A DNA stretch of 64,000 bases from Parcubacteria bacterium C7867-006 (GCA_001189155.1 LFCP01000001.1:147779-211778), one strand, 5' to 3'; counted from the stretch's first letter, positions 12,300 through 63,661 are shown. Notes: a model not told the origin generated them from the letters alone. Program-made: numbers and translations.

Positions 12300-12350
12300 A
12301 TGTTTAGTTTAACAAATACTTTAGCTTTTCCATATAACAGAGTTAACAGA

Positions 12351-12380
12351 CTTGACGTTCTGGCTACAAAAGGTGTAGTA
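12351..12380 (+). promoter_or_regulatory. Sigma70-like promoter of GC-rich cassette A
   Basis: TTGACG (12351-56), an 18-nt spacer, then TAGTAT (12375-80). Confidence 0.5.
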
Positions 12381-12397
12381 TTTTACCCGGAGGCACG

Positions 12398-12617
12398 CAT
12401 GAGTACTGTGAAGAATATCTCTCACACACCAAACAAACACCAGGCTACCGCACAGCCCATTCGCCGAATCGTTTGTCCAGTCTGTCACATCAGCCAGCCG
12501 GACATTCGCCAGACGAAGTGTCAGAGCTGTGGTCGGTTGCTTCCGGCTCGGCCTGGCGTAGTGACTGCACCTGTTCCGTCCAAGCGGTGGTTCGGGGGGA
12601 TCGCTCCCTCCAGGTAG
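12398..12617 (+). CDS. Small zinc-ribbon protein (GC-rich cassette A)
   Basis: GGAGG (12388-92) lies 5 nt before the ATG. Product is MSTVKNISHTPNKHQATAQPIRRIVCPVCHISQPDIRQTKCQSCGRLLPARPG..., with a CPxC...CxxC zinc-ribbon motif. GC-rich codons sit inside an AT-rich genome. Confidence 0.55.
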
Positions 12618-12651
12618 ATATCCGCAAGACAGAATCCCACCTCGTGCAATA

Positions 12652-12728
12652 CCGCCATGGATCCCAGCCCATGGCAAAGCCCTCGTCGCTCGTCGTCGCT
12701 TGTCGTCGTCGTCCCCGTAGGGCTTTTT
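12652..12728 (+). terminator. Hairpins downstream of the cassette A gene
   Basis: gccatgg-atcccagc-ccatggc hairpin, then agccct...(CGT-rich loop)...agggct followed by ttttt. Confidence 0.4.
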
Positions 12729-12766
12729 CTATATTTGAAATTTTCTTTGTGCTATATTGATTCAGA

Positions 12767-13309
12767 ATGAAAGAATCTTTTATAGTTCAATTTTTTAAAA
12801 AGTGGAGACAAATAGGGGCCATAGCACCCAGTTCTATTTTTTTAGTTGAGGATATGCTTTCTGAGGTTGATTGGGATAGGGCATCAATAATTATTGAGTT
12901 GGGAGCAGGCAGTGGTACTTTTACAAAACAAATATTGAAAAAAATGAGACCAGAAGCAAAACTTTTTGTTTTTGAAATAGATCATGTTTTTTTAAAAAAA
13001 TTAAATAAAATTATTGATTCTAGAATAGTCATAGTCTCTGAATCGGCAGAAAACTTATCAAAGTACCTTGATGGTAAAAAAGCAGATTATGTTATATCTG
13101 GCATCCCTCTTTCAAATTTAGATAAACATGTAAAATCTGGCATTATTTATTCCGCTATGGAGAGTATGGTTTCTGGGGGTATATTTTTGCAGTTTCAGTA
13201 TTTCCCTGAATCACTAAATTTTCTAAAGAAGTATTTTGACGATGTTAAGCTTAAATTTACGTTCTTAAATACACCTCCAGCTTTTTATTACATTTGCCTA
13301 AAAAAGTAG
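12767..13309 (+). CDS. Class I SAM-dependent methyltransferase
   Basis: SAM motif I (IIIELGAGSGTFT). Confidence 0.65.
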   Translation: MKESFIVQFFKKWRQIGAIAPSSIFLVEDMLSEVDWDRASIIIELGAGSGTFTKQILKKMRPEAKLFVFEIDHVFLKKLNKIIDSRIVIVSESAENLSKYLDGKKADYVISGIPLSNLDKHVKSGIIYSAMESMVSGGIFLQFQYFPESLNFLKKYFDDVKLKFTFLNTPPAFYYICLKK

Positions 13310-13321
13310 TATAATTGGGGG

Positions 13322-14212
13322 ATGAAAAAAATATCAATCTTTGTCTCGGCAGTCCTTATTTTATCAGTAGGTTATTTGGTCTTTTATGGTTTTAAAAAGG
13401 GGGAAAATAAGGTGGATAGCTATAAAAATGCCACTTATACTGTTGAGGGTAATAGTGTAAAACTTGTTAATGGTTTAAATGAAATACCATCAGCTCCTGG
13501 TTCTTCATCAAAAGTAGTTACTCGATATTTTGGTAATGAGGTTTCGCACGATTTTGATGGTGATGGAAGAGATGATATCGCGTTTTTGTTAACTCAAAAT
13601 GCAGGAGGTTCTGGTACATTTTATTATCTTGTTGTGGCTTTAAATAAAGAAGATGGCTATGTTGGTGGACACGCAACAATAATTGGGGACAGAATAGCCC
13701 CTCAAACAACAGAAATAGACAGCAAAGGTTTTATTGTTGTTAATTATGCTGACAGAAAACCTGGAGAAAGTTTTTCTACTCAACCTTCAGTTGGAAAAAG
13801 TCTCTGGTTTAAGTTCGACCCAACAACTATGCAGTTGGGAGTGGTCGTACAAAATTTTGAAGGCGAGGCTGATCCGTCAAAAATGACATTAAATATGAAA
13901 ACTTGGAATTGGGTTAAGACTATTTATAATGATGGAAAAGTTATTACACCGAAAAAGGATGTTTTCACCCTAACATTTAAAGGAAATCAGTTTTCTGCAA
14001 AAACTGATTGTAATGGAGTTGGAGGAGAATATACGGTAAACAGTGGAAAGATATCATTTGATAAAATGATGTCTACTATGATGTATTGTGATGGTTCACA
14101 AGAATCAGATTTTTCAAAAATGATTGGGGAAGTTTCGAGTTATATCTTTACCTCAAAAGGTGAACTGATATTAGAGTTTAAAATGGATTCAGGTAGTATG
14201 GTATTCAAATAA
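13322..14212 (+). CDS. Secreted protein with C-terminal META/HslJ-like domain
   Basis: N-terminal TM/signal; C-terminal CNGVGGEYTVNSGKISFDKMMSTMMYCDG fits the META pattern. Confidence 0.55.
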   Translation: MKKISIFVSAVLILSVGYLVFYGFKKGENKVDSYKNATYTVEGNSVKLVNGLNEIPSAPGSSSKVVTRYFGNEVSHDFDGDGRDDIAFLLTQNAGGSGTFYYLVVALNKEDGYVGGHATIIGDRIAPQTTEIDSKGFIVVNYADRKPGESFSTQPSVGKSLWFKFDPTTMQLGVVVQNFEGEADPSKMTLNMKTWNWVKTIYNDGKVITPKKDVFTLTFKGNQFSAKTDCNGVGGEYTVNSGKISFDKMMSTMMYCDGSQESDFSKMIGEVSSYIFTSKGELILEFKMDSGSMVFK

Positions 14213-14236
14213 TTATAAGATAGTTAATATACTCAT

Positions 14237-14665
14237 ATGACACTAGAAACAGAAGAAGTTAATGGAGTAATTAGAATAAAAAATCCAGACGAGGATTTAA
14301 AAGAAATGCACTATTATGGTGATAGAGTTAGAATGTTGTACATTGGAATGTCAGTTATCCTTTTAGTTATGTCTCCTTTTGTTCAAAATAGATTACCTTA
14401 TCCAGCTCTGCTTTCTATTTTTGCTGTTTTGTTTCTTACAATGGTAGCTGGACTAATAAGTCCAAAAGCTAAAGCGATAATAATCTTGAATTTTTTAGTT
14501 TCGGTAACTGCAATTATAGTTTTTGGAAAGGAAGCTATAGTATCTTATTCACATAATCTAAGTGACATTTTCTTCTGGGGCAATGTGGTGCTATCTGTAG
14601 CATCTATTTTTGCTCTTTATTACAGCAGTAAGACATTAAGAGGTGTTTTGCTTTATAAAAAATAA
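14237..14665 (+). CDS. Integral membrane protein
   Basis: Three or four TM helices. Confidence 0.45.
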   Translation: MTLETEEVNGVIRIKNPDEDLKEMHYYGDRVRMLYIGMSVILLVMSPFVQNRLPYPALLSIFAVLFLTMVAGLISPKAKAIIILNFLVSVTAIIVFGKEAIVSYSHNLSDIFFWGNVVLSVASIFALYYSSKTLRGVLLYKK

Positions 14666-14675
14666 ATAAAAAAAT

Positions 14676-14978
14676 ATGAAAGGATTTATTGATTTTATTC
14701 GTGAGCAGGGTGTTGTTGGATTAGCTGTCGGTTTTATTTTAGGGGGTGCTGTTTCAAAAGTAGTTACAGCAATAGTGACCGACATCATAAATCCTATTTT
14801 GGGTTTGGCTTTGGGGGCTGTGGGCGGATTAAAAACAGCTTCTTTTGGTATTGGGTCAGTACGAATACTATATGGGGATTTTTTGAGTGTAACTATAGAT
14901 TTTATCGTTGTTGCTTTAGTTGTTTATTTTGGAGTAAAAATGATAGGTTTGGATAGATTAGACAAAAAGAAATCCTAA
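14676..14978 (+). CDS. mscL: Large-conductance mechanosensitive channel
   Basis: MKGFIDFIREQGVVGLAVGFILGGAVSKVVTAIVTDIINPI, the canonical MscL N-terminus. Confidence 0.85.
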   Translation: MKGFIDFIREQGVVGLAVGFILGGAVSKVVTAIVTDIINPILGLALGAVGGLKTASFGIGSVRILYGDFLSVTIDFIVVALVVYFGVKMIGLDRLDKKKS

Positions 14979-15066
14979 TTATGATATAATTTAACATTAT
15001 GGCTAAAGGAGAGACACATAAAAAAGAAAAAAAGAAACCAAAGAAAATTAAATAATTTTATTTCAG

Positions 15067-15627
15067 ATGGCTTCTTCTAATAAAAAAAGTTTTTTTATGC
15101 ATGATTTATCAATCATTGCATTAAGTGTTTTGATTGCGTTAATTTTGATTAAAACAGATATTTTGTCTGGTTTTTTGGATTCTACATCTAGCTTTAAATT
15201 TTTAGGTAGTTTCATTGCTGGAATGTTTTTTACTTCGGTTTTTACCACAGCTCCTGCTATAGCTACATTAGGAGAAATAGCCCAACATGATTCCGTTTTT
15301 GTTACAGCTATTTTTGGAGCTATGGGTGCTGTTATAGGAGATATAATTATATTTCAATTTATCAGGGATGAACTAGCTGTTCATTTTGTCGAAATTATAA
15401 AACATAATTCTCTTTGGAAGAGATTTCACACACTATTTAGATTAAAGTATTTTAGGTGGTTTACTTTTATGTTGGGAGGGATAATTATAGCTTCTCCTTT
15501 TCCAGATGAGTTGGGTATAGGCCTTTTAGGTTTTGCTAAAACAAAAACTTCTTCTTTTATACCTGTGTCTTTAGCATTTAACTTTATAGGTATTCTTATA
15601 ATAGGTTTAGTAGCTAGAACCATATAG
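15067..15627 (+). CDS. Integral membrane protein
   Basis: Multiple TM helices. Confidence 0.45.
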   Translation: MASSNKKSFFMHDLSIIALSVLIALILIKTDILSGFLDSTSSFKFLGSFIAGMFFTSVFTTAPAIATLGEIAQHDSVFVTAIFGAMGAVIGDIIIFQFIRDELAVHFVEIIKHNSLWKRFHTLFRLKYFRWFTFMLGGIIIASPFPDELGIGLLGFAKTKTSSFIPVSLAFNFIGILIIGLVARTI

Positions 15628-15651
15628 TTATTTTTTTGATATAATTATTTT

Positions 15652-16098
15652 ATGAAAAGACCAGTACTATCATTAGATGAAATTAGGAAAAATAGAAAAC
15701 CTATTCGTAATGTAAACATAGAGCACAAACAAAAACTTAGTTCTTTAGATAATTTTGCTGTTTGGATAACTCAGCATATTGGCACGATGGGATTTTTCTT
15801 TGTTATTTTTTTCTGGACTGTTATTTGGTTGGGATGGAACGTGCTAGGTCCGAGTGAGTATCAGTTTGATCCTTATCCAGCTTTTGTATTTTGGCTTTTT
15901 ATATCAAATTTAATTCAGATATTCCTTATGCCTCTCATTATGATAGGACAGAATTTACAAGGTTATCACGCTGAAAGACGTGCGGAAGCTGATTTTGAGG
16001 TTAATAAAAAAGCAGAAGAAGAGATAGAAAATATCCTCACTCATTTGGAGAATCAAAATGATATGCTTTCTGATATTCTAGAGAAACTCAATAAATAA
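15652..16098 (+). CDS. Membrane protein (possibly DUF1003-like)
   Basis: Two TM helices plus a charged C-terminal tail. Confidence 0.4.
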   Translation: MKRPVLSLDEIRKNRKPIRNVNIEHKQKLSSLDNFAVWITQHIGTMGFFFVIFFWTVIWLGWNVLGPSEYQFDPYPAFVFWLFISNLIQIFLMPLIMIGQNLQGYHAERRAEADFEVNKKAEEEIENILTHLENQNDMLSDILEKLNK

Positions 16099-16491
16099 TT
16101 AGTTTTTTTTATGTATTTCTGATTCAACCTCTTCTACTTTTTGCTCTATTCTATTTAGGGTTTTTTGAAGTTTTTCTATTTTGTCTTCTTCCGTTTCTAT
16201 TTCCTCTCTTGTTTTTTCTGTAAGCTTTTTCTCGCCAGATAGACCTGAAATTATGAGTCTATTTCCAACAAAACTTGATACAAAAACTCCGGTTATTAGT
16301 AAAATACTTGATCCGAGAATTAAAGATATAAAAGAGTTTAAACTAACATCATCGGCTATGTGCCAGACTCCTCGCCAGAAAAGTACAACACCAACTCCTC
16401 CTAAAAGCGCATACAAAAAAGGAACTCTACTGAGTCTCGCCCTGGTTTTGTCTTCAAGTTTATCAAAAAATGAGAGTATGTTTTTATGCAT
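16099..16491 (-). CDS. Membrane protein with C-terminal coiled coil
   Basis: Two TM helices, then an EEIETEEDKIEKLQKTLNRIEQKVEEVE coiled coil. Confidence 0.4.
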   Translation of the reverse strand: MHKNILSFFDKLEDKTRARLSRVPFLYALLGGVGVVLFWRGVWHIADDVSLNSFISLILGSSILLITGVFVSSFVGNRLIISGLSGEKKLTEKTREEIETEEDKIEKLQKTLNRIEQKVEEVESEIHKKN

Positions 16492-16540
16492 ATTTGGCGG
16501 TGGATTTGGTGTCAGTTAATGATACAATATTAACACAATT

Positions 16541-17293
16541 ATGATGAATACCAAAAAAGTAATAGCTTGTGATTTGGATGGAACACTAGCTCCCAGCAAA
16601 TCATCTTTATCAAGAGAAATGTCAGATGTTATACGTCAGATTTTACCAAGGTATTCTCTAGCTGTTATTTCTGGAGGTGCTTTCCCTCAGTTTCAAAAAC
16701 AGTTTTTATTTAATTTAGATTGCCCTAAGGAGCTTTATAAGAATCTATATCTATTTCCAACAATGGGCAGTACTTGTTATGTTTACGACTATGAAAAAGA
16801 TGACTGGAAACAGATTTATGAAGAAAAGTTAAGTGATGAAGAGAGAAGAGATATAATACAAGCATTTAAAGATTCTATAAATGAGTCTGGTTTAGATTTG
16901 GAGGGTGCTTATGGAGAAATACTTGAAGACAGAGGAACACAAGTGACTTTTTCTGGTAGAGGACAGAATGCTCCAATAGATGCAAAAAATTCTTGGGATC
17001 CAGATAGAACAAAGAGACAGATTCTTGTTGATTTATTAAAAAGTAAAATACCAAATTTTGATATTAGGATGGGAGGAATGAGTTCTATTGATGTCACGAG
17101 ACTTGGAGTTGATAAGGCTTATGCTATAGGTAAAATAAAAAGTCTGTTGAACGTAAATGATGATGATATTGTTTTTGTTGGTGATGCTTTGTATAAAGGT
17201 GGTAATGATGCTCCAGTTAAAAAAACTAATGTGGATTATATTCAAGAAGATGGTCCAAACGAGACTCTAGAGTTGCTTAAAAATTATATATAG
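16541..17293 (+). CDS. HAD-IIB hydrolase, phosphomannomutase (eukaryotic PMM-type)-like
   Basis: CDLDGTL motif I, ~250 aa PMM-like length, mannose-metabolism gene context. Confidence 0.6.
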   Translation: MMNTKKVIACDLDGTLAPSKSSLSREMSDVIRQILPRYSLAVISGGAFPQFQKQFLFNLDCPKELYKNLYLFPTMGSTCYVYDYEKDDWKQIYEEKLSDEERRDIIQAFKDSINESGLDLEGAYGEILEDRGTQVTFSGRGQNAPIDAKNSWDPDRTKRQILVDLLKSKIPNFDIRMGGMSSIDVTRLGVDKAYAIGKIKSLLNVNDDDIVFVGDALYKGGNDAPVKKTNVDYIQEDGPNETLELLKNYI

Positions 17294-17345
17294 GATATCA
17301 ACATATTTTTTATACAAGTTCATTTTGCTGTGATAAAATTAGGAC

Positions 17346-17687
17346 ATGAATTCAACTACCACCAAAAGACCATGGGGGTCATTTACCCGTTTTACAGATA
17401 ATGAAAATTCTACAGTAAAACTTTTAAATATAAACAAAGGCGAGCAGTTGAGTTTGCAGTATCATATGAAAAGAAGTGAGTTTTGGAGAGTTATTTCTGG
17501 TAATCCAGAAATAATCATAGATGAGCAAAAATATGATGCTAAAGAGGGGGATGAGTTTAATGTTTCAGCTGAATCAAAACATAGGATAGGAGCTCCGTAT
17601 GATGACGTGGTTATTTTAGAGATATCTAAAGGTGATTTTGATGAGAACGACATAGTTAGACTCGAGGATAAATACAATAGGGTTTAA
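17346..17687 (+). CDS. Cupin-domain protein (mannose-6-phosphate isomerase type II cupin-like)
   Basis: QYHMKRSEFWRVISGNPEIIIDEQKYDAKEGDEFNVSAESKHRIGAPYDDVVILEIS. Confidence 0.6.
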   Translation: MNSTTTKRPWGSFTRFTDNENSTVKLLNINKGEQLSLQYHMKRSEFWRVISGNPEIIIDEQKYDAKEGDEFNVSAESKHRIGAPYDDVVILEISKGDFDENDIVRLEDKYNRV

Positions 17688-19576: not shown

Positions 19577-19586
19577 TATCAAAAAT

Positions 19587-21491: not shown

Positions 21492-21496
21492 ATAGA

Positions 21497-30415: not shown

Positions 30416-30444
30416 TTTACTTGTATATTTTCTGATGCTAGTAT
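30416..30444 (+). promoter_or_regulatory. Sigma70-like promoter of GC-rich cassette B
   Basis: TTTACT, a 17-nt spacer, then TAGTAT. Confidence 0.4.
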
Positions 30445-30475
30445 CTTTTGGGACGTACAAACACATGGGGGGTTT

Positions 30476-30658
30476 ATGTTGTATTTGCGCGGGGTGTCTG
30501 GTCCGAGAAAGATACTCGCAACTCATCCTGAACTGAAGGAACTGCCGCCATTTGAGCGGACAGTCGCCATGATTAGGCTTCTCCGTCAGGAAGCTGAACG
30601 GCTCAAGTCGAAGAAGATCGAACAGTTCGATCGCGAAATTCCAGAATTGTTGTTCTGA
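30476..30658 (+). CDS. Small helical protein (GC-rich cassette B, 60 aa)
   Basis: GGGGGG precedes the ATG. Product is MLYLRGVSGPRKILATHPELKELPPFERTVAMIRLLRQEAERLKSKKIEQFDREIPELLF. GC-rich with its own terminator. Confidence 0.45.
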   Translation: MLYLRGVSGPRKILATHPELKELPPFERTVAMIRLLRQEAERLKSKKIEQFDREIPELLF

Positions 30659-30668
30659 ACACTCCACA

Positions 30669-30701
30669 CAGTCGGGCTTCGGCCCGACTGTTCCCGTTTT
30701 T
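30669..30701 (+). terminator. Intrinsic terminator of cassette B
   Basis: cagtcgggc-ttcg-gcccgactg (9-bp stem, UUCG loop) then ttcccgttttt. Confidence 0.7.
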
Positions 30702-30702
30702 G

Positions 30703-30773
30703 TGCGGGATACGAGAATCGAACTCGTGTCTCATCCTTGGGAAGGACGTATCATACCACTAAACTAATCCCGC
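30703..30773 (-). tRNA. tRNA-Gly (anticodon CCC), CCA not encoded
   Basis: Reverse complement is GCGGGATTAGTTTAGTGGTATGATACGTCCTTCCCAAGGATGAGACACGAGTTCGATTCTCGTATCCCGC; close to E. coli tRNA-Gly; anticodon loop TTCCCAA. Confidence 0.8.
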
Positions 30774-30844
30774 TTATCCAGGATTATATCACCGCATTCA
30801 TATTCTACAATTTTAAACTTTTATATTTTAAAAATATTGTTATA

Positions 30845-40958: not shown

Positions 40959-40984
40959 ATTTTTTAAAGGTTGGTTTTTGTAAT

Positions 40985-41013
40985 GTGAAAAGCGCCGAGT
41001 TCCGGCGCTTCAC
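40985..41013. terminator. Bidirectional hairpin between tkt and cassette C
   Basis: gtgaaaagcgccg-agtt-ccggcgcttcac. Confidence 0.5.
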
Positions 41014-41023
41014 CTCCTTTGGT

Positions 41024-41416
41024 TTAGAAATGAACGATGTTGATGTGGTTGTCGGTGAGAGTTGGGATTGCGACGTCGAGGATGGCCGGCATTGCCAGTT
41101 TGTCCATCTCGGACATCTTGATGAGTATATCTGACACACGGATCTCTCCGTTGGTTGGCAGTCCGCAGAGTGTTGAAAATTCTTTCGCTCCCCAGACTTC
41201 GAATCCAACGTAGTTTTTCTTTCCGTCTTCTTCGTGGTTCCGCCGAAGAAGAGACAGATGAGTTCCTTTGATGAACTCCTCTGTTGTAGAGCAGTCCTCA
41301 ACAATGACCGAAATCATGTCGAGTTCGTCGCTGTATGTAATACAGGGACGAAACGCCAGTCTCCCCGTGAGCCAACCCGAGAATATTTCATCTAAGGTTT
41401 GATTTTCCACATTCAC
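41024..41416 (-). CDS. Hypothetical 128-130 aa protein (GC-rich cassette C)
   Basis: Minus-strand promoter TTGAGT (complement of 41452-57), 17-nt spacer, TACAAT (complement of 41429-34); AGAGG SD; GTG start (41416, or 41410 with better SD spacing). GC-rich relative to the flanks; product MNVENQTLDEIFSGWLTGRLAFRPCITYSDELDMISVIVEDCSTTEEF... has no recognisable family. Confidence 0.5.
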   Translation of the reverse strand: MNVENQTLDEIFSGWLTGRLAFRPCITYSDELDMISVIVEDCSTTEEFIKGTHLSLLRRNHEEDGKKNYVGFEVWGAKEFSTLCGLPTNGEIRVSDILIKMSEMDKLAMPAILDVAIPTLTDNHINIVHF

Positions 41417-41467
41417 CTCTAGATTTTTATTGTAACAGATGGATCGTAGTAACTCAATGGATTTTTA

Positions 41468-43372: not shown

Positions 43373-43400
43373 TTGTTTATTAAGTGTTTTATTGTATAAA
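43373..43400 (+). promoter_or_regulatory. Promoter of GC-rich cassette D
   Basis: TTGTTT, a 16-nt spacer, then TATAAA with an adjacent TG. Confidence 0.4.
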
Positions 43401-43418
43401 TGTTGTCGGAGGCTGCGC

Positions 43419-43637
43419 ATGATGGATGATGATATTCCACCGGTCACCCTTGATGAGGCTTTCGAGATCTGTCAGCGAGCGTTCGCTGGTGGTCACGTTG
43501 ACCATGAAAGGGTCCTAGACATCAAGGCCTACTGTTACGTTGATGACAACTTCGCAATCGCTCTGTATGAGAGGTTGCATCTGTCTGGGCATTTCGTTAT
43601 GTCAGCTCTGGACCGTGCCGTCTATGAAAGTCTATAG
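43419..43637 (+). CDS. Small acidic protein (GC-rich cassette D, 72 aa)
   Basis: GGAGG (43408-12) lies 6 nt before the ATG. Product is MMDDDIPPVTLDEAFEICQRAFAGGHVDHERVLDIKAYCYVDDNFAIALYERLHLSGHFVMSALDRAVYESL. Confidence 0.5.
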   Translation: MMDDDIPPVTLDEAFEICQRAFAGGHVDHERVLDIKAYCYVDDNFAIALYERLHLSGHFVMSALDRAVYESL

Positions 43638-43669
43638 ACGGCAACGGATAACAACATCTCGTCCGCACG

Positions 43670-43693
43670 AAAACTCGTCGCGGGCGAGTTTTC
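43670..43693. terminator. Bidirectional hairpin terminator of cassette D
   Basis: aaaactcgtcgcgggcgagtttt. Confidence 0.55.
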
Positions 43694-43740
43694 AATTATA
43701 TAGGGGTTGATTAATTTAGACTTTTTGTTATACTACCCGA

Positions 43741-47340: not shown

Positions 47341-47369
47341 TTGACAAATATATTATATAGTAGTATAAT
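47341..47369 (+). promoter_or_regulatory. Consensus-perfect sigma70 promoter of GC-rich cassette E
   Basis: TTGACA (47341-46), a 17-nt spacer, then TATAAT (47364-69). Confidence 0.65.
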
Positions 47370-47406
47370 TATTAAAGATCTAACAATTTCCTTGAAAGGG
47401 GAAACA

Positions 47407-47796
47407 ATGCCCTATACGAAGACCTTCGCCGTTGTTACCAGCCTTCTCGCTTTTCAGATTGCCATGATGTGGTTCGCAGTTGGTTCCACTTCTGGCGGTA
47501 ACGAGTTCAAGACTGTGACAACCCACAGCTACGACGTTCCGTTCGAAAGGTACTGCGGTTATCTGGAAGAAGTTGCCCATGGAGTCATCCAGTTCGACGG
47601 CAAGGACCCAGTGGACATCGCGTATCTTTTCTTCCGCTCATCGGTTGGGAAGCCTAGCATCCCGCGTATCATCTACGGGGACACAGAGAGACTCAGTAAG
47701 ATTGAGTCGGGTCGTCATTACGACATCGGTGTCCGTCAGTACGGTGGTGGACTAAACTTCCCACGCCGTCTTGATGTAGTCGAGTCGTGCAAGTAG
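47407..47796 (+). CDS. Secreted/membrane-anchored hypothetical protein (GC-rich cassette E, 129 aa)
   Basis: AAGGGG SD lies 5 nt before the ATG. N-terminal signal/TM helix (TKTFAVVTSLLAFQIAMMWFAVGS), GC-rich codons. Confidence 0.55.
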   Translation: MPYTKTFAVVTSLLAFQIAMMWFAVGSTSGGNEFKTVTTHSYDVPFERYCGYLEEVAHGVIQFDGKDPVDIAYLFFRSSVGKPSIPRIIYGDTERLSKIESGRHYDIGVRQYGGGLNFPRRLDVVESCK

Positions 47797-47811
47797 TAGA
47801 TCTGAGCACAA

Positions 47812-47860
47812 GTCGGTGGGTTGATCCCACCGACAGGACCACACATTTGTGTGGTTTTTT
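47812..47860 (+). terminator. Tandem hairpin terminator of cassette E
   Basis: gtcggtggg-ttgat-cccaccgac, then ccacac-attt-gtgtgg followed by tttttt. Confidence 0.7.
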
Positions 47861-47935
47861 CAAATTCAAATATGTCAAAAAACCTAAGCTCTGACTATTG
47901 CACAACATTTATGTTTCTGCTACTATATCCACCAC

Positions 47936-51909: not shown

Positions 51910-52523
51910 ATGGACTCTAGTCTAAAAATAGATGTTTCTTCTGGTCATTTGCACCCAATCAGTCTAGTTTTGCTTGAAATAAACAAAATATTTTCTGATT
52001 ACTTAGAACACACACATCTCCTGTTCAGGTTAGGTTTATGGAGAAAAATAAACCACCTATTCGTATCATTGCTCCGGGAAAAGTTTTTAGACATGAGGCA
52101 ACAGACGCAACTCACGAAGCTCAGTTTTACCAGTTAGAGGGTTTGGTTGTTGGTGAGAATATTTCTGTAGCTAATTTGAAATGGACTCTAGAAACAATGT
52201 TTGAAAAACTTTTTGGTAAAAAAATGAATATTAGGTTGCGACCAAGTTATTTCCCATTCGTCGAACCTGGTTTTGAAATGGATATGTCTTGTTTCAAATG
52301 TGAAGGAAGGGGTTGTAGTACTTGTAAAAATACTGGATGGATTGAGATCGGTGGCTCAGGAATGGTGCATCCCAAAGTTTTGGAAAGTGCCGGAGTTGAT
52401 TCAAAAAAATATTCTGGTTTCGCTTTTGGTTACGGAGTGGACAGAATTGCGATGCTTAAATACGGAATAGACGATGTTCGTCTACTTTATCAAGGAGATT
52501 TACGTTTGGTTAATCAATTCTAA
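51910..52523 (+). pseudogene. pheS: Phenylalanyl-tRNA synthetase alpha subunit, disrupted (internal deletion plus frameshift) or assembly error
   Basis: Frame 1 (51910..52137) gives ...[22 protein letters not shown], the PheS region before motif 1. Frame 2 (open from 51999) gives [49 protein letters not shown]... (motifs 2 and 3). About 39 codons including motif 1 (the HPAR...DTFY region of class-II motif 1) are missing, and the frames differ. Confidence 0.6.
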
Positions 52524-54658: not shown

Positions 54659-54750
54659 TCTTTAAGCCATATAAATAGACTAAAATAGCTTGTTGTGAGG
54701 ACTGTTTTTTGCTATAATTAATGGGTTAAATTAACTAAAATATCAACAAA

Positions 54751-56838: not shown

Positions 56839-57773
56839 TGTCTAAATATCTAGTAACAGGTGGGGCGGGGTTTATTGGTTCGAATATTGTGAAAAGACTA
56901 GTCGAAGAGGGAAAGGATGTGAGAGTTTTAGATAATCTCTCTACAGGAAAGATAAAGAACATCGAGCCTTTTCTCGACAAGATAGAGTTCATTGATGGCG
57001 ACTTTACTGATATTGAAGTTGCTCGGTCTGCTGTAAAAGGCGTGGACTACGTAATACACACAGGGGCTATACCTTCTGTACCACGTTCTATTGATGATCC
57101 AGTAAAAACAAACGCATCAAATATAACCGGAACACTCAACCTCCTCATTGCTTCTCGTGATGAAAAAGTAAAACGTTTTGTGTATTCAGCTTCGTCATCT
57201 GCATATGGAGACTCACCAGTAATGCCGAAGGAAGAAACTATGCCGATAGCTCCAAAGTCTCCATATGCAATACAGAAACTAGTTGGTGAGATGTATTGTC
57301 AGAATTTTTATAAATTATTTGGATTAGAGACTGTGTGTCTACGATACTTTAATGTGTTTGGTCCCAATCAAGATCCAGAGTCTGTTTACTCCGCAGTAAT
57401 ACCTTTGTTTATTAAAAAGCTACAAAAAGGTGAGTCACCAGTTATATTTGGAGACGGACTAACTTCTAGAGATTTTACTTATGTAGATAATAATGTTGAT
57501 GCAAACCTGCGAGCGTGTGTTGCAGACTCAGCTTGTGCAGGAGAGGTTATAAACATTGCTTGTGGGTATGAGATATCACTGAACCAGTTAGTTGAGAAAA
57601 TAAACACGGAGCTTGGAACTGATATAAAACCAGAATATAAAGATGAACGAGCCGGAGATGTAAAACACTCACTAGCAGACATTTTAAAAGCAGAAAAACT
57701 TTTGGGCTACAAACCTCTAGTTAGTTTTGAAGAAGGACTCAGAAAAACAATAGAGTTTTATAAAAACAAATAA
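56838..57773 (+). CDS. NAD-dependent epimerase/dehydratase (UDP-sugar 4-epimerase-like)
   Basis: VTGGAGFIGSN Rossmann motif, YxxxK (YAIQK). Confidence 0.8.
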   Translation: MSKYLVTGGAGFIGSNIVKRLVEEGKDVRVLDNLSTGKIKNIEPFLDKIEFIDGDFTDIEVARSAVKGVDYVIHTGAIPSVPRSIDDPVKTNASNITGTLNLLIASRDEKVKRFVYSASSSAYGDSPVMPKEETMPIAPKSPYAIQKLVGEMYCQNFYKLFGLETVCLRYFNVFGPNQDPESVYSAVIPLFIKKLQKGESPVIFGDGLTSRDFTYVDNNVDANLRACVADSACAGEVINIACGYEISLNQLVEKINTELGTDIKPEYKDERAGDVKHSLADILKAEKLLGYKPLVSFEEGLRKTIEFYKNK

Positions 57774-57774
57774 A

Positions 57775-57802
57775 CAAAAAACCTCCAAATTTGGAGGTTT
57801 TT
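57775..57802. terminator. Bidirectional intrinsic terminator
   Basis: aaaaaacctccaaatttggaggtttttt. Confidence 0.75.
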
Positions 57803-57805
57803 TGT

Positions 57806-58048
57806 TTATTTAGTTTCTTCCTTCTTTGTTTCAGTATACTCCGCCTCTTTCGCTTTAGCTTCTGGGTGTTTTGGAATAATTATTGTAGCAACGATGTAAC
57901 CTAGAATTGCAGGAACAACTCCTGTCATAATTGCTAGCACTATAAAAACAAGCCGAAGAACTGTAGGATCAATATCTACATATTCACCTATACCACCTAT
58001 AACTCCAGCTAGTATTTTGTCATCTTTACTTTTATATAGCTTTCTCAT
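57806..58048 (-). CDS. PspC-domain membrane protein
   Basis: KSKDDKILAGVIGGIGEYVDIDPTVLRLVFIVLAI. Confidence 0.7.
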   Translation of the reverse strand: MRKLYKSKDDKILAGVIGGIGEYVDIDPTVLRLVFIVLAIMTGVVPAILGYIVATIIIPKHPEAKAKEAEYTETKKEETK

Positions 58049-58061
58049 TTTTTTAATTTAA

Positions 58062-59333: not shown

Positions 59334-59404
59334 CTAGTAGAAAATTGAATTGTATTGACGTTTACTACTTATTATGTGAGAGTTATTTATGGAGGACCAG
59401 AAAG

Positions 59405-59608
59405 ATGAAGACTCTGAATCTCAGCCAGACTGGTCGTGCTATGGTGACGACGGCGTTGATGTACTTTCTCTTCATCGCTGTCGCGATCACACTACTCCTC
59501 AGTATCGGGACGTTGGGGTGGTACCTGTTTCTGGCCGTGGTTATCGCTTTCGCGGCCTTGAGGGCCTACAGCGACTGGGACAGGAGGAACTGGAGGGGGT
59601 TTTTCTAA
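59405..59608 (+). CDS. Small two-TM membrane protein (GC-rich cassette F, 67 aa)
   Basis: GGAGG (59391-95) lies 9 nt before the ATG. Product is MKTLNLSQTGRAMVTTALMYFLFIAVAITLLLSIGTLGWYLFLAVVIAFAALRAYSDWDRRNWRGFF. An upstream TTGACG (59355-60) may be its -35. Confidence 0.5.
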   Translation: MKTLNLSQTGRAMVTTALMYFLFIAVAITLLLSIGTLGWYLFLAVVIAFAALRAYSDWDRRNWRGFF

Positions 59609-59618
59609 TCCTTCTCCA

Positions 59619-59660
59619 TAGGGCTACCCGCGATTTCGTCGCTGGTAGCCCTTCAGCTTT
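59619..59660 (+). terminator. Intrinsic terminator of cassette F
   Basis: agggctaccc-gcgatttcgtcgc-tggtagccct followed by tcagctttt. Confidence 0.6.
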
Positions 59661-59835
59661 TATTGTGATTTTTGTCAGTGGAGGAAATAGTTTTTGAGAA
59701 ACATCCGCAGACGCCGAGCTTGGCGTTGTCAACGACCCGAGTATAACGAGGGCTCTTGACGACAAGGCGTTGAGGACAGAATGAGGCTTCCGTTGGAAGA
59801 AGCCGAATGTTTTCGAAAAACTATTTCTGAAACTT

Positions 59836-62800
59836 CTATTCCAACAATTTTACTTTATCAACCAAAATACTTTTTTCTCCATTTCTTAGAGAAAAAGTGC
59901 CTTTTATAACCACACAGCTTTCTGGTATTAATATATCTTGAAACTCTTCAAATATTTTTGGAAACGCAACTCCTTCAATTGTGTCAGTTAGATCTGATAT
60001 TTTTAAGAAAACCATTTTGTCTCCCTTTTTTGTGACGACAGGTTTTACCTCATCTATTATTCCACCAAAAACTATTGGCTGTTTTTCTTTTCCAGTTTCT
60101 TTTAATTTTTTAATATTATTTTCTCTACCTTCTAGTTTTTCTCGGAAAGATTCAAGTGGGTGTCCAGAAATATAGAGTCCAAGAAGTTCTTTTTCCCAAA
60201 GTAGTTTATCTGCAGAATTGCCGTGAGATGCTTTTTCTAAATCAATTTCTGTGACTTCTCCACTATTTATCATTCCACCGAAAAGAGAGTCTTGATCAGA
60301 TTCTTTTGCTCTTTCTTCTTTGTTAAAAGCCAACAGTCTATCTAGATTGTGAAGTAGAGTAAATCTGTATTGATCTTTGTCATCAGTATCTTTTGCTAGA
60401 GAGTCTAACGCCCCTGTTTTTATGAGGGATTCCATTGATTTTTTATTTAGGTTTTTGTCTTTTATGCGACTTAGGAAATCAGAAAGAGATTTGAATGGTC
60501 CATTTGCCTTTCTTTCGTCTATGATTGATGTGGCTATTCCTTCACCAAAATTTTTTATTGTAGAAAGTCCAAAACGGATAGTATCTATCTCCCCAGGATT
60601 TTTCGCCTTGTTTACTCCAAACCCTTCAAAAGAAAAGTTAACGTCTGGAGGAAGAACAGGTATGTTCATATGTTTACACTCACCGATTATTTCGGCAATC
60701 ATATCTGTGTCGCCAGATTCTGCTGTAAGAACAGCTGACATATATATAGCAGGGAAGTTGGCTTTCATATATGCGGTTTGATACGCGACACGTCCATAAC
60801 TCGCAGCGTGAGCTTTGTTGAAACCGTAACCCTGAAAAGGTTCAAACAAGAGCCATAGCTCTTCCGCTTTTTTCTCAGTCATTCCACCAAACTTTTGACA
60901 ACCCTCAACGAACTTCACATGTTGCTTCTTCATTTCCTCTGGGATTTTCTTTCCAACAGCTTTTCGGAATTTATCCACTTCACCCCAGTCGTAACCAGCT
61001 ATTTCAATGGCGGTATAGAGTAGGTCGTCCTGGTAAACAAGCACTCCAAAAGTTCTATCCAAAAAGTTTTTCATTTTTGGGTGTAGATATGTCACAGGTT
61101 TTTTGCCGTGCTTTCGCGCGATGTACTCGTTTATGTTATCCATCGGACCCGGTCGGTAAAGCGCCACCATCACGTTTATGTCGTGGATAGTTGTTGGCTT
61201 GAGTTCCTTCAGGGCCCGAGTCATTCCATCTCCATTTAGTTGGAAAAGTCCAATAGTTTCTCCTCGAGCCAGCATTTCAAAAGTTTTTTTATCATCTACT
61301 GGAACTGTATCCATATCAACATCTATTCCTTCTACTTTTTTTGTAATTTTTACAGCATCAGCCAATATTGATAGGTTTCTGATTCCAAGGAAGTCGAATT
61401 TTAGTAGCCCTACTCCGTCTTCACCAACAGCATGCATATCGTATTGAGTAATGATTTTGTTATCTCCTTTTGTATCGTACTGTAGTGGTACGTAGTCGGT
61501 AAGTGGAGTAGGTGAGATAACAACGCCAGCAGCGTGCACGGAGATATGGCGGGCACAACCTTCGATTTTTTTAGCCATATCAATTATTTTTTTTACGTCT
61601 TCATCGTCCGTATACATTTTTTTGAGTTCTGGATTTTCTTTTAAAGCTCTTTCGATTGTCATAGGGAATCCTTGTGCCCCCATTGGAATTGCCTTTGCAA
61701 TAGAGTCTCCAAGGCTGTATGGAAAACCAAGTGCGCGAGTTACATCACGAACAGAACCACGAGCAGCCATGGTACCGAACGTACCTATTTGAGCTACCTT
61801 ATCAATCCCATATTTTCCACGAGCATAGTCTATTACCTCGTCACGTCTGTTATCAGCAAAATCCATATCGATATCAGGAGCAGATGGTCTAGATGGATTG
61901 AGAAATCGCTCGAAAGGCAAATAGTATTCAATAGGATCTACATTTGTAATTCTAGTTAGATATGTTGTAAGGGAGCCTGCAACTGAACCTCGGATGTTTG
62001 TTAGTATTCCATGATCGTGGGCATAGTGCAGAAGATCGGACACAACGAGGAAATATGGAGCATAACCTTTATCTCTAATAACTTTTAATTCGTATTCTAA
62101 CCTCTCTATATATTCTGGAGTTTGTTTTAGATTTCTTTTTTCAAAACCTTCATACGCAATTTTTTTGAGTTCATCATCGTAAGACAAACCACTTTCAACA
62201 ATATAGTTTGGTAGGAACCATTTTCCAATAGATATTTCTAGATTACACCTATCAGCTATTTTTACTGTATTTTCTAGAGCTTCGGGTGTATCTTTGAAAA
62301 TTTTTTCAGCTTGTTTTTGAGTTATGAAAGAAAAGTCTTCATCACTTTCTTCTATTTTGTCATCATGTTGTGACTGAATAGAAAGTAGAGTTTGTCTGGC
62401 TATGCGGTCTTCTGAGCTTAGATAATAAACATCTTGAGCACCAACAATAGGTGTATTTGTATTTTTTGCAAATTGTATTATTTTTTTTGTATTTTCTTCA
62501 GTACCTTTTATTTCTGGATGGTGAGTTATTTCAAAATAAAGGTTTGGACCATCTTCGGTATCAGGAAAAGTTTTTTTATACCAAGACAACCTTTCATCTG
62601 CCTGTTCTGTATTTGAAAGTTGAAGAGATTTCGGTATGTCGCCACTCAAAGAAGGTATTATAGCAATAAGTCCCTCGTTGTATTTTTCTAAAAGTTCTCG
62701 GTCAATACGAGGTTTGTAGTAGAAACCTTCAAGATGGGCAAGAGTTACTAGCTTAATTAGATTTTTATACCCCGTATCATTTTTTGCTAGTAAGATTAGT

Positions 62801-63069
62801 CTGTATCTTTCTTTATCAATTCCAGATTGTTTATCTAGTCGGCTTCTATACGCAACATAAGCATCAATACCTATTATAGGTTTGATCTCTTTTTTCTTGC
62901 ACTTTTGGTAAAACTCTATCGCACCATATAAGTTGCAGTTATCAGTTAGAGCTATAGCAGTCTGTCCGTCTTTTACTGCTGCATCTATAAGGTCTGGGAT
63001 TTTTGGCAGAGCATTAAGTAGGGAATAATGAGAGTGGGTGTGAAGATGAATAAACTTTGAATCTGCCAT
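59836..63069 (-). CDS. dnaE: DNA polymerase III alpha subunit
   Basis: PHP domain (HLHTHSHYSLL) at the N-terminus, 1077 aa, OB-fold C-terminus. Confidence 0.9.
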   Translation of the reverse strand: MADSKFIHLHTHSHYSLLNALPKIPDLIDAAVKDGQTAIALTDNCNLYGAIEFYQKCKKKEIKPIIGIDAYVAYRSRLDKQSGIDKERYRLILLAKNDTGYKNLIKLVTLAHLEGFYYKPRIDRELLEKYNEGLIAIIPSLSGDIPKSLQLSNTEQADERLSWYKKTFPDTEDGPNLYFEITHHPEIKGTEENTKKIIQFAKNTNTPIVGAQDVYYLSSEDRIARQTLLSIQSQHDDKIEESDEDFSFITQKQAEKIFKDTPEALENTVKIADRCNLEISIGKWFLPNYIVESGLSYDDELKKIAYEGFEKRNLKQTPEYIERLEYELKVIRDKGYAPYFLVVSDLLHYAHDHGILTNIRGSVAGSLTTYLTRITNVDPIEYYLPFERFLNPSRPSAPDIDMDFADNRRDEVIDYARGKYGIDKVAQIGTFGTMAARGSVRDVTRALGFPYSLGDSIAKAIPMGAQGFPMTIERALKENPELKKMYTDDEDVKKIIDMAKKIEGCARHISVHAAGVVISPTPLTDYVPLQYDTKGDNKIITQYDMHAVGEDGVGLLKFDFLGIRNLSILADAVKITKKVEGIDVDMDTVPVDDKKTFEMLARGETIGLFQLNGDGMTRALKELKPTTIHDINVMVALYRPGPMDNINEYIARKHGKKPVTYLHPKMKNFLDRTFGVLVYQDDLLYTAIEIAGYDWGEVDKFRKAVGKKIPEEMKKQHVKFVEGCQKFGGMTEKKAEELWLLFEPFQGYGFNKAHAASYGRVAYQTAYMKANFPAIYMSAVLTAESGDTDMIAEIIGECKHMNIPVLPPDVNFSFEGFGVNKAKNPGEIDTIRFGLSTIKNFGEGIATSIIDERKANGPFKSLSDFLSRIKDKNLNKKSMESLIKTGALDSLAKDTDDKDQYRFTLLHNLDRLLAFNKEERAKESDQDSLFGGMINSGEVTEIDLEKASHGNSADKLLWEKELLGLYISGHPLESFREKLEGRENNIKKLKETGKEKQPIVFGGIIDEVKPVVTKKGDKMVFLKISDLTDTIEGVAFPKIFEEFQDILIPESCVVIKGTFSLRNGEKSILVDKVKLLE

Positions 63070-63119
63070 ATGTGCGAGTCATTATAGCACAGCCTAAAAT
63101 CAGTGATAATTAATAAAAA

Positions 63120-63148
63120 TTGACAATGTTTTAATGGTATAACATAAT
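63120..63148 (+). promoter_or_regulatory. Sigma70-like promoter of GC-rich cassette G
   Basis: TTGACA (63120-25), a 17-nt spacer, then CATAAT (63143-48). Confidence 0.55.
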
Positions 63149-63173
63149 CAAAAAAGATCATTTGCGGGGTGCT

Positions 63174-63347
63174 ATGGGAGAAATCGTTCACGAAGTCCGT
63201 TGGCAAGTTCAGAACAACAGAAAGAATCTTCTGGAGTTCGGTGCAGTAATTGTGGTAATCCTTTTCACTGTTGCCGTGATTCTAGCTCCAGTTTTTGAGT
63301 TTGCGATAGGACTCGCAGCTTATATGGAAAGGAGGTTCTGGGGGTGA
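63174..63347 (+). CDS. Small membrane protein G1 (GC-rich cassette G)
   Basis: GGGG lies before the ATG at 63174 (the track uses a TTG at 63162). Product is MGEIVHEVRWQVQNNRKNLLEFGAVIVVILFTVAVILAPVFEFAIGLAAYMERRFWG. Confidence 0.5.
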   Translation: MGEIVHEVRWQVQNNRKNLLEFGAVIVVILFTVAVILAPVFEFAIGLAAYMERRFWG

Positions 63348-63592
63348 GCTTCATACACAAGGAAAGCCAGATCGGATCGGTTGCAATCATTGTCGGGTTG
63401 GTCTTCCTAGTCGCTGTTCTTGTCGGGTTATCCTCTAGTGCTGAGGAGCCTGTTCGAGCGACACTCTTGGGGATCTGTATCGCGTTTGCGATAACAGACC
63501 TTGCTCTGGTGCCCTATGTCTTCCAGAGTTTTCTTTTTTGGTGGCAACGCCGAAAAGAAGATAAGGAAGATGAAATGAGAAGGTACTGTTGA
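63344..63592 (+). CDS. Small two-TM membrane protein G2, translationally coupled to G1
   Basis: The GTG start overlaps the G1 TGA (GTGA), and GGAGG lies 8 nt upstream. Product is MSFIHKESQIGSVAIIVGLVFLVAVLVGLSSSAEEPVRATLLGICIAFAITDLALVPYVFQSFLFWWQRRKEDKEDEMRRYC. Confidence 0.5.
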   Translation: MSFIHKESQIGSVAIIVGLVFLVAVLVGLSSSAEEPVRATLLGICIAFAITDLALVPYVFQSFLFWWQRRKEDKEDEMRRYC

Positions 63593-63607
63593 GTTACCAA
63601 GTCGTTC

Positions 63608-63644
63608 AAGGGGTCACCGTGCTGAGCACAGTGACCCCTTTTAG
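63608..63644 (+). terminator. Strong intrinsic terminator of cassette G
   Basis: aaggggtcaccgtg-ctgag-cacagtgacccctt followed by ttagt. Confidence 0.7.
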
Positions 63645-63661
63645 TATGTTAAAATCTTTGT

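Follow-up and report, generated by a model that had tools for sequence, protein, structure and literature searches.

Seven islands of raised guanine-plus-cytosine (GC) content lie in the spacers between the genes of a 64,000-nucleotide stretch of Parcubacteria bacterium C7867-006 (GCA_001189155.1, LFCP01000001.1:147779-211778; hereafter the window). These islands, which we call cassettes A to G in their order along the window, are six and a half protein-coding units with eight open reading frames (ORFs) of 57-130 amino acids (aa), plus one non-coding repeat that makes up the second half of cassette F (F2, as opposed to the coding half F1). We consider it probable that the eight ORFs are real small genes and that they represent a distinct second gene class, housed in expression slots that are conserved within the lineage. 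The source genome, published by Nelson & Stegen 2015 (PMC4508563), is a groundwater metagenome-assembled genome (MAG) with a size of 652,563 bp and a GC content of 36%; the GC-rich islands go unmentioned in that paper.

A first-pass annotation of the window had reported seven sharply bounded GC-rich cassettes between conserved genes, and a windowed GC profile bears out both their discreteness and their positions. The window as a whole has a GC content of 0.358, with a standard deviation of 0.063 among 120-nt windows. The islands peak at 0.53-0.65 in windows of this size and have whole-length GC contents of 0.47-0.54. They map to 12351-12770, 30431-30800 (where the right end is a tRNA-Gly gene), 40971-41410, 43381-43710, 47381-47860, 59381-59830 and 63231-63570. 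Pfam searches, tRNA scans and the precomputed annotation also agree with the flanking genes that had been proposed for cassettes A to G, namely FAD oxidase|methyltransferase, matrixin|tRNA-Gly(CCC), tktC|pfkB, fba|rplY, prfA|rpsB, thrS|dnaE and dnaE|rnhB.

The GC excess is distributed as expected for coding DNA. GC contents at the first and second codon positions of the cassette ORFs resemble those of native genes, and the excess resides almost wholly at the third position (GC3) of the proposed frames, which agrees with the coding periodicity that had been named as a point to check. GC3 is 0.45-0.76 in the eight cassette ORFs and 0.18-0.33 in all of the approximately 60 native genes of the window, which makes for a bimodal distribution with slot-type genes accounting for about 11% of the window's genes. 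Codon usage differs accordingly between cassettes and native genes (ATC 0.62 versus 0.13; AAG 0.78 versus 0.21; CAG 0.83 versus 0.39; AGA 0.11 versus 0.56). Amino acid usage is shifted from lysine to arginine, with 6.8% R and 4.1% K in the cassettes compared to 3.6% R and 8.6% K in native genes. The 3' untranslated regions (3'UTRs) of the cassettes are likewise GC-rich (0.48-0.60). The proposal that these genes do not look native therefore holds for GC3, codon and amino acid usage and, as described below, for translation initiation.

We compared the eight cassette proteins, concatenated into one query, with 1.84 billion representative proteins in an exhaustive HMMER search, which returned homologues for seven of them, that is, for all but B. 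The number of homologous clusters is about 55 for C, six for E, three each for D and G2, two for F and one each for A and G1. For D and F, nonsynonymous divergence (pN) is far below synonymous divergence (pS), which argues for purifying selection on the predicted proteins. Searches of all eight proteins against Pfam, PHROGs and PADLOC gave no significant family, in keeping with the earlier failure to assign any of them by eye, and the islands produced zero matches to Rfam, both at the gathering threshold and at an expectation value of E<=1. The predicted products fall into membrane proteins (E, F, G1 and G2) and cytosolic proteins (B, C, D and the zinc-ribbon-like A).

The islands are also found outside this one assembly. 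The DNA of the window occurs in the Joint Genome Institute (JGI) metagenome 3300001199 (contig J055_10000035), in the NCBI MAG and in the Logan assembly of SRR2043728, and all seven islands were recovered in independent public assemblies. The Logan contig is 100% identical to the window over cassette D and its flanks. Over 20.6 kb, the sole difference between the JGI contig and the window is an indel of 136 nt inside pheS near position 52000. Since the same DNA appears in independent environmental assemblies, we can eliminate the possibility that the islands were planted, engineered or created by chimeric assembly. The indel itself consists of 136 nt of the JGI contig (L001, 18259-18395) that are missing from the window at about 52000, where pheS is called with 161 aa instead of 249 aa; it reflects either a difference in assembly or strain variation.

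Each cassette was said to carry its own Shine-Dalgarno (SD) sequence and terminator, and this architecture is confirmed. Seven of the eight cassette ORFs are preceded by an SD that pairs with the anti-SD at -6.3 to -12.3 kcal/mol. In the eighth, C, a GAGGTG lies directly ahead of an alternative GTG start at 41410, and orthologues of C carry GAGGTG-N5-ATG. Folding energies of the terminator hairpins range from -17 to -31 kcal/mol, with z values between -4.3 and -6.0, and a U-run comes after every hairpin. The claim that every cassette has its own promoter stands in part. Cassette E contains the sole 12/12 match to TTGACA-17-TATAAT within 20 kb, but overall there is no enrichment of promoter-like matches (39 observed versus 51.6 expected from shuffling), so the consensus alone is weak evidence for a promoter. 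Conservation of the upstream regions in relatives provides the stronger indication that the putative promoters are functional.

Native genes appear to start translation differently. Only two of 59 have an SD of -6 kcal/mol or stronger, with a mean of -0.1 kcal/mol. Counting C as SD-positive, the contrast between eight of eight cassette ORFs and two of 59 native genes is significant (Fisher p = 6.9e-9). In about 22 of the 59 native genes, the ATG instead follows an extended -10 box at a distance of 5-12 nt (for example at 3676, 8596, 13322, 37944, 43741, 44488 and, on the minus strand, 59836), which suggests that leaderless mRNAs are widespread among them. The same division is visible in 31 related loci, where an SD precedes 49% of 41 GC3-rich ORFs, a set that includes some spurious antisense ORFs, compared to 7% of 367 GC3-poor ORFs (Mann-Whitney p = 4e-7). 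In orthologous slots, the spacing of 5-9 nt between SD and start codon is conserved despite divergence of the ORF, which suggests that the SD is functional. According to Tsurumaki et al. 2022 (PMC9297842), roughly half of Parcubacteria have no detectable anti-SD motif. We searched the loci of all relatives for the 3' end of 16S rRNA, which would contain the anti-SD, and found none. Our literature search returned no paper on GC-rich, SD-led gene classes, on leaderless translation or on miniature inverted-repeat transposable elements (MITEs) in the candidate phyla radiation (CPR).

For comparison with relatives we used 80 syntenic Parcubacteria/Paceibacteria loci, obtained by a genome scan with fba; individual loci are cited below by L-numbers. 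The gene order tktN-tktC-pfkB(-)-fba-rplY-slt-rpmE-prfA-rpsB-tsf is conserved across them, and the spacers vary from 8 to 1631 nt at tktC|pfkB, from 38 to 4741 nt at fba|rplY and from 28 to 2123 nt at prfA|rpsB. Cassette D is missing from the two closest relatives (L003 and L004, with 92-93% identity in fba): their fba and rplY genes are directly adjacent with a gap of 42 nt, as the first-pass annotation had thought worth checking, and the rplY promoter directly follows fba. Cassette C is missing from L004 and L005, as is E from L007. At the same time, A, C, D, F and G have homologues at the same junctions in relatives. Alignments of orthologous junctions reveal sharp boundaries and a conserved promoter, SD and start codon around a highly divergent ORF body; the terminator hairpin shares this conservation at tktC|pfkB and fba|rplY and varies between relatives at dnaE|rnhB. 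Homologues of the cassette ORFs, including those of the E family, have a GC3 of 0.49-0.72 next to neighbours at 0.23-0.34, the exceptions being two more distant C-like genes at 0.40.

A slot can also hold an unrelated gene. In L008, the fba|rplY slot is filled by a GC-rich ORF that encodes about 125 aa and has a promoter of its own as well as a GGAGG. Of ten GC-rich slot ORFs tested from other relatives, nine had no Pfam match and one contained the C-terminal domain of RpoA. The latter is an ORF of 262 aa in L046 (7561-8349), and a slot ORF in L032 (7850-8248) looks DUF1653-like by eye. Slots can thus accommodate regulators as well as ORFans.

Cassette A (12352-12730, plus strand) starts with a -35 element TTGACG (12352-12357) and a -10 element TAGTAT (12376-12381), followed by the SD GGAGG (12389-12393; -9.5 kcal/mol), an ORF of 72 aa (12399-12617, GC3 0.62) with the CxxC...CxxC pattern of a zinc-ribbon-like protein, and a terminator hairpin (12676-12726, -17.4 kcal/mol, z -4.5). 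A homologue with 43% identity, P0034, is located at the same FAD-oxidase|methyltransferase junction in L087. Between the two loci the promoter and the 3'UTR are conserved and the ORF is variable (pN 0.385, pS 0.71). About 45 nt of this 3'UTR (~12640-12680; TCCCACCTCGTGCAATACCGCCATGGATCCCAGCCCATGG), which contain a CCATGG...CCATGG hairpin, exceed the ORF in their conservation between the two loci. As to the opposite strand, long ORFs arise by chance on both strands of GC-rich DNA, and one of 118 aa runs antisense to A.

Cassette B (30419-30702, plus strand) contains a -10 element TAGTAT (30439-30444) followed by a G-rich SD (-9.9 kcal/mol) and an ORF for a helical, charged protein of 60 aa (30476-30658; GC at codon positions 1/2/3 of 0.57/0.36/0.56). 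Its terminator hairpin (30668-30691) has a folding energy of -19.8 kcal/mol (z -6.0), and the cassette abuts the minus-strand gene for tRNA-Gly(CCC).

Cassette C (40972-41460, minus strand) directly follows pfkB on the same strand and comprises a promoter TTGAGT-17-TACAAT (41457-41429), the SD GAGGTG, an ORF of 128-130 aa (41416/41410-41024) and a terminator that it shares with tktC (41010-40975, -17.1 kcal/mol). The GC3 of C is 0.56, compared to 0.22 for pfkB. A C-like gene occurs immediately downstream of pfkB on the same strand in ten of ten genomes (the window, L003, L006, L007, L008, L011, L013, L018, L019 and L093), with promoter, SD and terminator conserved and the ORF hypervariable. 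The product is predicted to be a cytosolic alpha/beta protein, modelled by AlphaFold with a predicted local distance difference test (pLDDT) score of 92.6. This fold had no match among solved structures in the PDB, where a profile search only reached E 0.5-0.8, and Pfam assigned no significant family to the 53 C-family members searched. A suspected resemblance to DUF2283 was likewise unsupported by family searches. The family does conserve the motifs F-P-x-A-x-Y, DCSxTE and YVGF. It is possible that the C product is functionally linked to PfkB.

Cassette D (43385-43700, plus strand) has an extended -10 element TGtATAAAT, the SD GGAGG (-9.5 kcal/mol), an ORF for an acidic, helical protein of 72 aa (43419-43637) and a terminator (43658-43688, -20.9 kcal/mol); the promoter of rplY lies after the cassette. 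The orthologue in L007 shares 92% of its amino acids (pN 0.05, pS 0.86), and a distant D-like gene with 29-35% identity occupies the same fba|rplY slot in L005. Cassette E (47341-47862, plus strand) combines the perfect TTGACA-17-TATAAT promoter (47341-47369) with the SD AGGGG, an ORF of 129 aa (47407-47796) and two tandem hairpins (47812-47858). The encoded protein is predicted to contain an N-terminal transmembrane (TM) helix and a domain resembling the oligonucleotide/oligosaccharide-binding (OB) fold with conserved Cys residues. Elsewhere, E-family genes sit between rpmG and clpB and between a phosphoribosyltransferase-family gene and yceI, which makes three different junctions if the window is counted. 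A metagenome scan for the E family retrieved 2 loci only.

Cassette F1 (59355-59665, plus strand) begins with a -35 element TTGACG (59355-59360) and the SD GGAGG (59391-59395; -9.3 kcal/mol). Its ORF (59405-59608, GC3 0.76) encodes a two-TM hairpin protein of 67 aa with the C-terminal sequence NWRGFF and is followed by a terminator (59620-59652, -24.2 kcal/mol). The orthologue at thrS|dnaE in L085 is 81% identical (82% by HMMER; pN 0.117, pS 0.56), and the same slot in L088 contains a divergent F1 homologue with a conserved promoter. Cassette G (63120-63650, plus strand) contains two ORFs behind a single promoter (TTGACA 63120-63125, CATAAT 63143-63148) and ahead of a terminator (63608-63640, -23.7 kcal/mol), with the rnhB promoter located after the cassette. 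G1 (63174-63347) is a membrane protein of 57 aa with one or two TM segments, and G2 (63344-63592) is a protein of 82 aa with two TM segments and a GTG start. The TGA stop of G1 overlaps with the GTG start of G2 as GTGA (63344-63347) and a GGAGG is embedded in the end of G1, which suggests that the two may be translationally coupled; SD energies are -6.3 kcal/mol for G1 and -12.3 kcal/mol for G2. G1/G2-like pairs occur at dnaE|rnhB in L088-L091, and the pair is adjacent in L091 too. Within this set of slots, G2 is only 43% identical where dnaE is 93% identical. The promoter of cassette G is conserved in relatives and the ORFs are variable.

Slot proteins in general evolve 5-50 times faster than the proteins encoded on either side. 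For C, pN is 0.27-0.55, compared to 0.01-0.09 in the flanks, and across 45 pairs from 10 taxa the identity of C does not correlate with that of the flanks (Spearman 0.08, p = 0.61). One example is the pair L006 and L008. Their fba and pfkB genes are 99% and 93% identical (flank pN 0.01-0.04, pS 0.34-0.56), yet their C-like genes are only 26-29% identical (pN 0.55, pS 0.78). This divergence points to replacement of alleles by recombination within a conserved frame, or to hypermutation that is restricted to the locus. A non-exhaustive inspection of the loci revealed neither a reverse transcriptase nor a template repeat.

The persistence of the high GC content is a separate puzzle. Between the window and L005, the synonymous sites of the flanks are saturated (pS 0.66-0.82), and the D-like genes in the same slot still have GC3 values of 0.53 and 0.52. 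Between the window and L007, 37 of 66 D codons for identical amino acids differ, and the synonymous flux between GC and AT is symmetric (16 versus 15). Under the amelioration model reportedly put forward by Lawrence & Ochman in 1997, and with a mutational bias towards AT that is regarded as universal, a single ancestral acquisition followed by neutral amelioration should have led to decay of the GC excess. The persistence of GC3 thus implies either repeated replacement from a GC-richer pool or a force on the ORFs that favours GC. Translational optimisation was considered as such a cause and rejected, given that the ribosomal-protein genes of the window have GC3 values of 0.20-0.25.

The first-pass annotation had interpreted the cassettes as a family of horizontally acquired, mobile or engineered units. 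They are indeed autonomous, foreign-looking and accessory, but engineering is excluded, they have neither DNA nor repeats or att-like sites in common, and recent insertion alone does not explain them. The further suggestion of effector- or toxin-like products is speculative. Alignment of the seven cassettes with each other, which had been proposed as a way to find shared flanking repeats or att sites, revealed no DNA similarity, common repeats, att-like ends or target duplications. No flanking repeats were found at the cassettes, and no integrase, transposase or recombinase is present among the annotated neighbours. B alone abuts a tRNA gene, and the repeat of the tRNA end at this site is only a chance match of 10 nt. 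The search for a phage origin, which comprised scans of viral contigs for the families of E and C, a tblastn comparison with 50,697 phage records and the PHROGs searches, failed to provide a match. Without common DNA or ends and without viral matches, the cassettes contradict the idea of a single family of mobile elements. Signs of recent islands are mixed. Atypical composition and codon usage are present, D has an empty site in L003/L004, C is absent in L004/L005 and incongruent elsewhere, and E is variable; on the contrary side, A, C, D, F and G have divergent same-slot homologues in other relatives with conserved regulatory frames.

The element F2 is of a different nature. The first-pass annotation had treated 59660-59835 as the second ORF of cassette F. 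This candidate gene was rejected, as the segment is a structured repeat. It extends over about 176 nt (59663-59838, plus strand) and folds into an 18-bp closing helix and a branched core with three further helices. A terminal inverted repeat of 24 nt delimits the element, which has a minimum free energy of -57.3 kcal/mol (z -4.1). Copies occur at other junctions in other genomes. Comparison of five F2 sequences identified compensatory changes in 26 of 51 pairs. A covariance model found 45 copies in 1.41 Mb of related loci, where a stretch of 20 kb contains four at most, and a single copy in the window. In the resulting alignment, which was fitted to the covariance model itself, 94% of the cells are paired, compared to 67% in shuffles and at most 53% when the partners are slid; in 46 of 51 pairs, both partners vary. 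Forty of 44 copies are intergenic; they occur in both orientations, tight against stop or start codons, with lengths of about 125-180 nt. L005 contains four copies, L026 three and L006, L014, L016, L017, L021, L025, L027, L029, L030 and L034 two each, among others. At thrS|dnaE, F2 is absent in L085 and L088. Several copies of the family stand directly after the fba stop codon, in the slot that is occupied by cassette D in the window. Selection on RNA structure is indicated by the pervasive compensatory changes in four helices and by the presence of G-U pairs. F2 has no match in Rfam and is a new dispersed structured repeat, either similar to repetitive extragenic palindromic (REP) elements and MITEs or a small RNA (sRNA) or terminator module.

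The reading that we favour explains the islands as follows. Each slot, situated between core genes, possesses its own putative sigma-70-type promoter, a strong SD and an intrinsic terminator, such that each unit could be transcribed on its own and translated by SD-dependent initiation, whereas the AT-rich core genes would be translated from leaderless mRNAs or without an SD. The products may be accessory, conflict-related or cell-surface and host-interface proteins under diversifying selection. Homologous recombination via the conserved flanks would allow related Parcubacteria to gain, lose and swap the alleles of these genes. The persistent GC-richness would then be due either to continual replacement from a GC-richer pool or to a GC-favouring force in the form of selection or biased gene conversion.

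Several points weigh against this reading. The data cover 64 kb of one genome and pieces of about 20 kb from relatives. The putative promoters were recognised by consensus matches and conservation, and a function of the SD in slot genes was deduced from its conservation in orthologous slots. The only database match of the B protein in the exhaustive HMMER search is B itself, so that for this cassette it is composition and signals that speak for coding. Diversifying selection and a role in conflict or at the host interface were proposed on account of fast protein evolution and membrane topology. Recombination between lineages is suggested by the incongruent divergence of one family (C, 10 taxa), and local hypermutation could mimic such an exchange of alleles.

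Two rival explanations concern the composition of the islands. The genes could be vertically inherited natives whose GC-richness is actively maintained, be it by selection on expression, mRNA structure or stability, by avoidance of spurious AT-rich promoters and leaderless starts, or by GC-biased gene conversion at hot spots. This scenario, which we regard as a serious but doubtful contender, accounts for homologues that keep a GC3 of about 0.5-0.7 across lineages with saturated synonymous sites in the flanks, for the symmetric synonymous flux in D, for the conserved regulatory frames and GC-rich 3'UTRs (0.48-0.60), and for the presence in the window of tRNAs that read G-ending codons (Gln-CTG and Gly-CCC). 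It does not account for C, the divergence of which is uncorrelated with that of the flanks to the point that near-identical genomes contain C alleles with 26-29% identity; pure vertical descent is no explanation for this pattern. Ordinary translational optimisation is contradicted by the GC3-poor ribosomal-protein genes, the effects of GC-biased conversion reported in bacteria are far below a shift from 0.25 to 0.6, and the C-like genes of the distant loci L013 and L093 exhibit only a small excess in GC3 (0.40 versus 0.31-0.33). The other scenario, which is that of the first-pass annotation, appears unlikely to us. It holds that the cassettes were acquired recently and independently and became inserted between housekeeping genes, and that their composition simply mirrors a donor with higher GC content and SD usage, be it a phage, a plasmid, the host bacterium or a GC-rich parcubacterium. 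Composition and the usage of codons and amino acids would fit a genome with about 50-55% GC, other Parcubacteria from the same aquifer sample do have 53-56% GC, and the SD-led initiation differs from that of native genes. Variable presence among close relatives, the three junctions of the E family and the incongruence of C alleles with their flanks also fit. However, same-slot homologues with conserved, slot-specific signals remain GC3-rich next to flanks with pS of 0.66-0.82 (0.53 and 0.52 for D), the synonymous flux in D is symmetric (16 versus 15), there are no integrases, att sites, target duplications, common ends or phage and viral homologues, and all carriers recovered are AT-rich genomes of Parcubacteria.

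We find it highly improbable that the islands are structured non-coding RNAs with incidental ORFs, although such RNAs frequently account for GC-rich islands in AT-rich genomes. The covariation of F2, the 3'UTR element of cassette A that is better conserved than the ORF, and chance ORFs on both strands such as the one antisense to A are in line with this possibility, and the first-pass annotation had itself raised it. F2 is the only part of the islands for which it was borne out, and B may be a candidate; cassettes A, C, D, E, F1 and G do not encode such RNAs in place of ORFs. Rfam provided no match even at E<=1, the GC excess is placed at codon position 3, pN is far below pS in D and F, and HMMER delineates protein families. 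C is predicted with a confident fold and E with an OB-fold domain, while TM segments, CxxC pairs and the spacing from SD to start are conserved. For A, C, D, E, F1 and G2, the coding evidence refutes the RNA explanation. An assembly chimera, a contamination or a synthetic construct could be suspected from the sharp boundaries and the textbook-like promoter, SD and terminator signals. Given three identical independent public assemblies and divergent same-slot homologues in unrelated metagenomes from other sites, we consider the chance of such an artefact to be negligible.

What these slots mean depends on which reading holds. In an extended form of the explanation that we favour, one reduced genome would harbour two regimes: an AT-rich core that is leaderless or SD-less, and a slot compartment with actively maintained GC-rich composition that serves as a platform for diversification. 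We regard this extension as quite unlikely. If true, it would provide such cells with built-in diversification of surface, host-interaction or conflict proteins, the translation of which might be gated by a distinct mode of initiation. In the most extreme version, should the lineage lack an anti-SD, slot genes would be destined for translation on SD-dependent ribosomes that do not belong to the cell itself. If on the other hand ordinary horizontal transfer and recombination suffice, the slots would still provide a clean, if unsurprising, example of hot-spot turnover in a reduced genome. Genomes of CPR/Patescibacteria are rich in uncharacterised small genes, and the interactions of these cells with hosts and phages are poorly understood. 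The combination of GC3, SD, private terminator and fixed slot offers markers, readable from sequence, for fast-evolving and probably interaction-related genes. The slots also pose two puzzles, a GC-rich composition that outlasts synonymous saturation and an SD that is used by one class of genes but not by the core. A by-product of the analysis is an intergenic RNA or repeat family, abundant and with strong covariation, which lies outside Rfam.

Two other features of the window were recorded. A perfect 20-bp AT-rich hairpin with a GGAGG/CCTCC core is located between convergent genes at 57767-57812 and scores as a bidirectional terminator; its several sub-threshold Rfam matches (Phe_leader, rimP) are probably chance matches to the terminator. 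The first 1000 nt of the window have a raised GC content (0.39-0.43) and a positive AT skew, contain only short ORFs of odd composition (for example 372-653, with a GC content of 0.51 at second codon positions) and have no Rfam match.

Several known systems resemble the slots in part. Phage morons, reportedly described by Hendrix, Juhala and colleagues in about 2000, are also single small genes between conserved genes, with their own promoter and terminator, divergent composition and patchy presence. In contrast to morons, the cassettes are located outside of prophages between chromosomal housekeeping genes (tkt, pfkB, fba, rplY, prfA, rpsB, thrS, dnaE, rnhB), have no homologues in PHROGs or viruses, and keep slot and signals across species while the ORF turns over. 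Like integron cassettes, they are small, mostly ORFan genes of diverse function that seem to be exchanged as units at fixed positions. Unlike integron cassettes, they do not share attC-like inverted repeats (their 3' hairpins are unrelated GC-rich terminators), each has a promoter-like site of its own, they are dispersed singly over 51 kb instead of forming an array, and there is no integrase among the annotated neighbours. The hydrophobic proteins F, G1 and G2 (57-82 aa), encoded on what are predicted to be short, GC-rich, terminator-flanked mRNAs with an SD, are reminiscent of type I toxin-antitoxin systems. However, F and G2 contain two TM segments instead of one, A, B, C and D are soluble, no match was found in PADLOC or Pfam, and no antisense promoter or RNA was identified for F, G1 or G2.

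F2 has its own set of counterparts. REP elements and bacterial interspersed mosaic elements (BIMEs), enterobacterial repetitive intergenic consensus (ERIC) sequences, Correia and RUP elements, Rickettsia palindromic elements (RPEs) and MITEs are all, like F2, short intergenic repeats with terminal complementarity that occur in both orientations and in several copies. F2 differs from them by pervasive compensatory changes in four helices, by having no known transposase partner and by its absence from Rfam. A further counterpart of the coding slots is provided by accessory hot spots between core genes, also described as genomic islets or regions of genome plasticity. As in these, core synteny is kept, the content of the junctions varies between strains and species, and ORFan genes prevail. 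Usually, it is the accessory genes and ORFans that exceed the core in AT content. Slot genes, in contrast, are much GC-richer, use another mode of translation initiation and reside in a regulatory frame that is conserved while the ORF varies. Unless an active GC-maintaining or dual-translation mechanism is demonstrated, the slots are a new variant that stands beside morons, integron cassettes and accessory hot spots.

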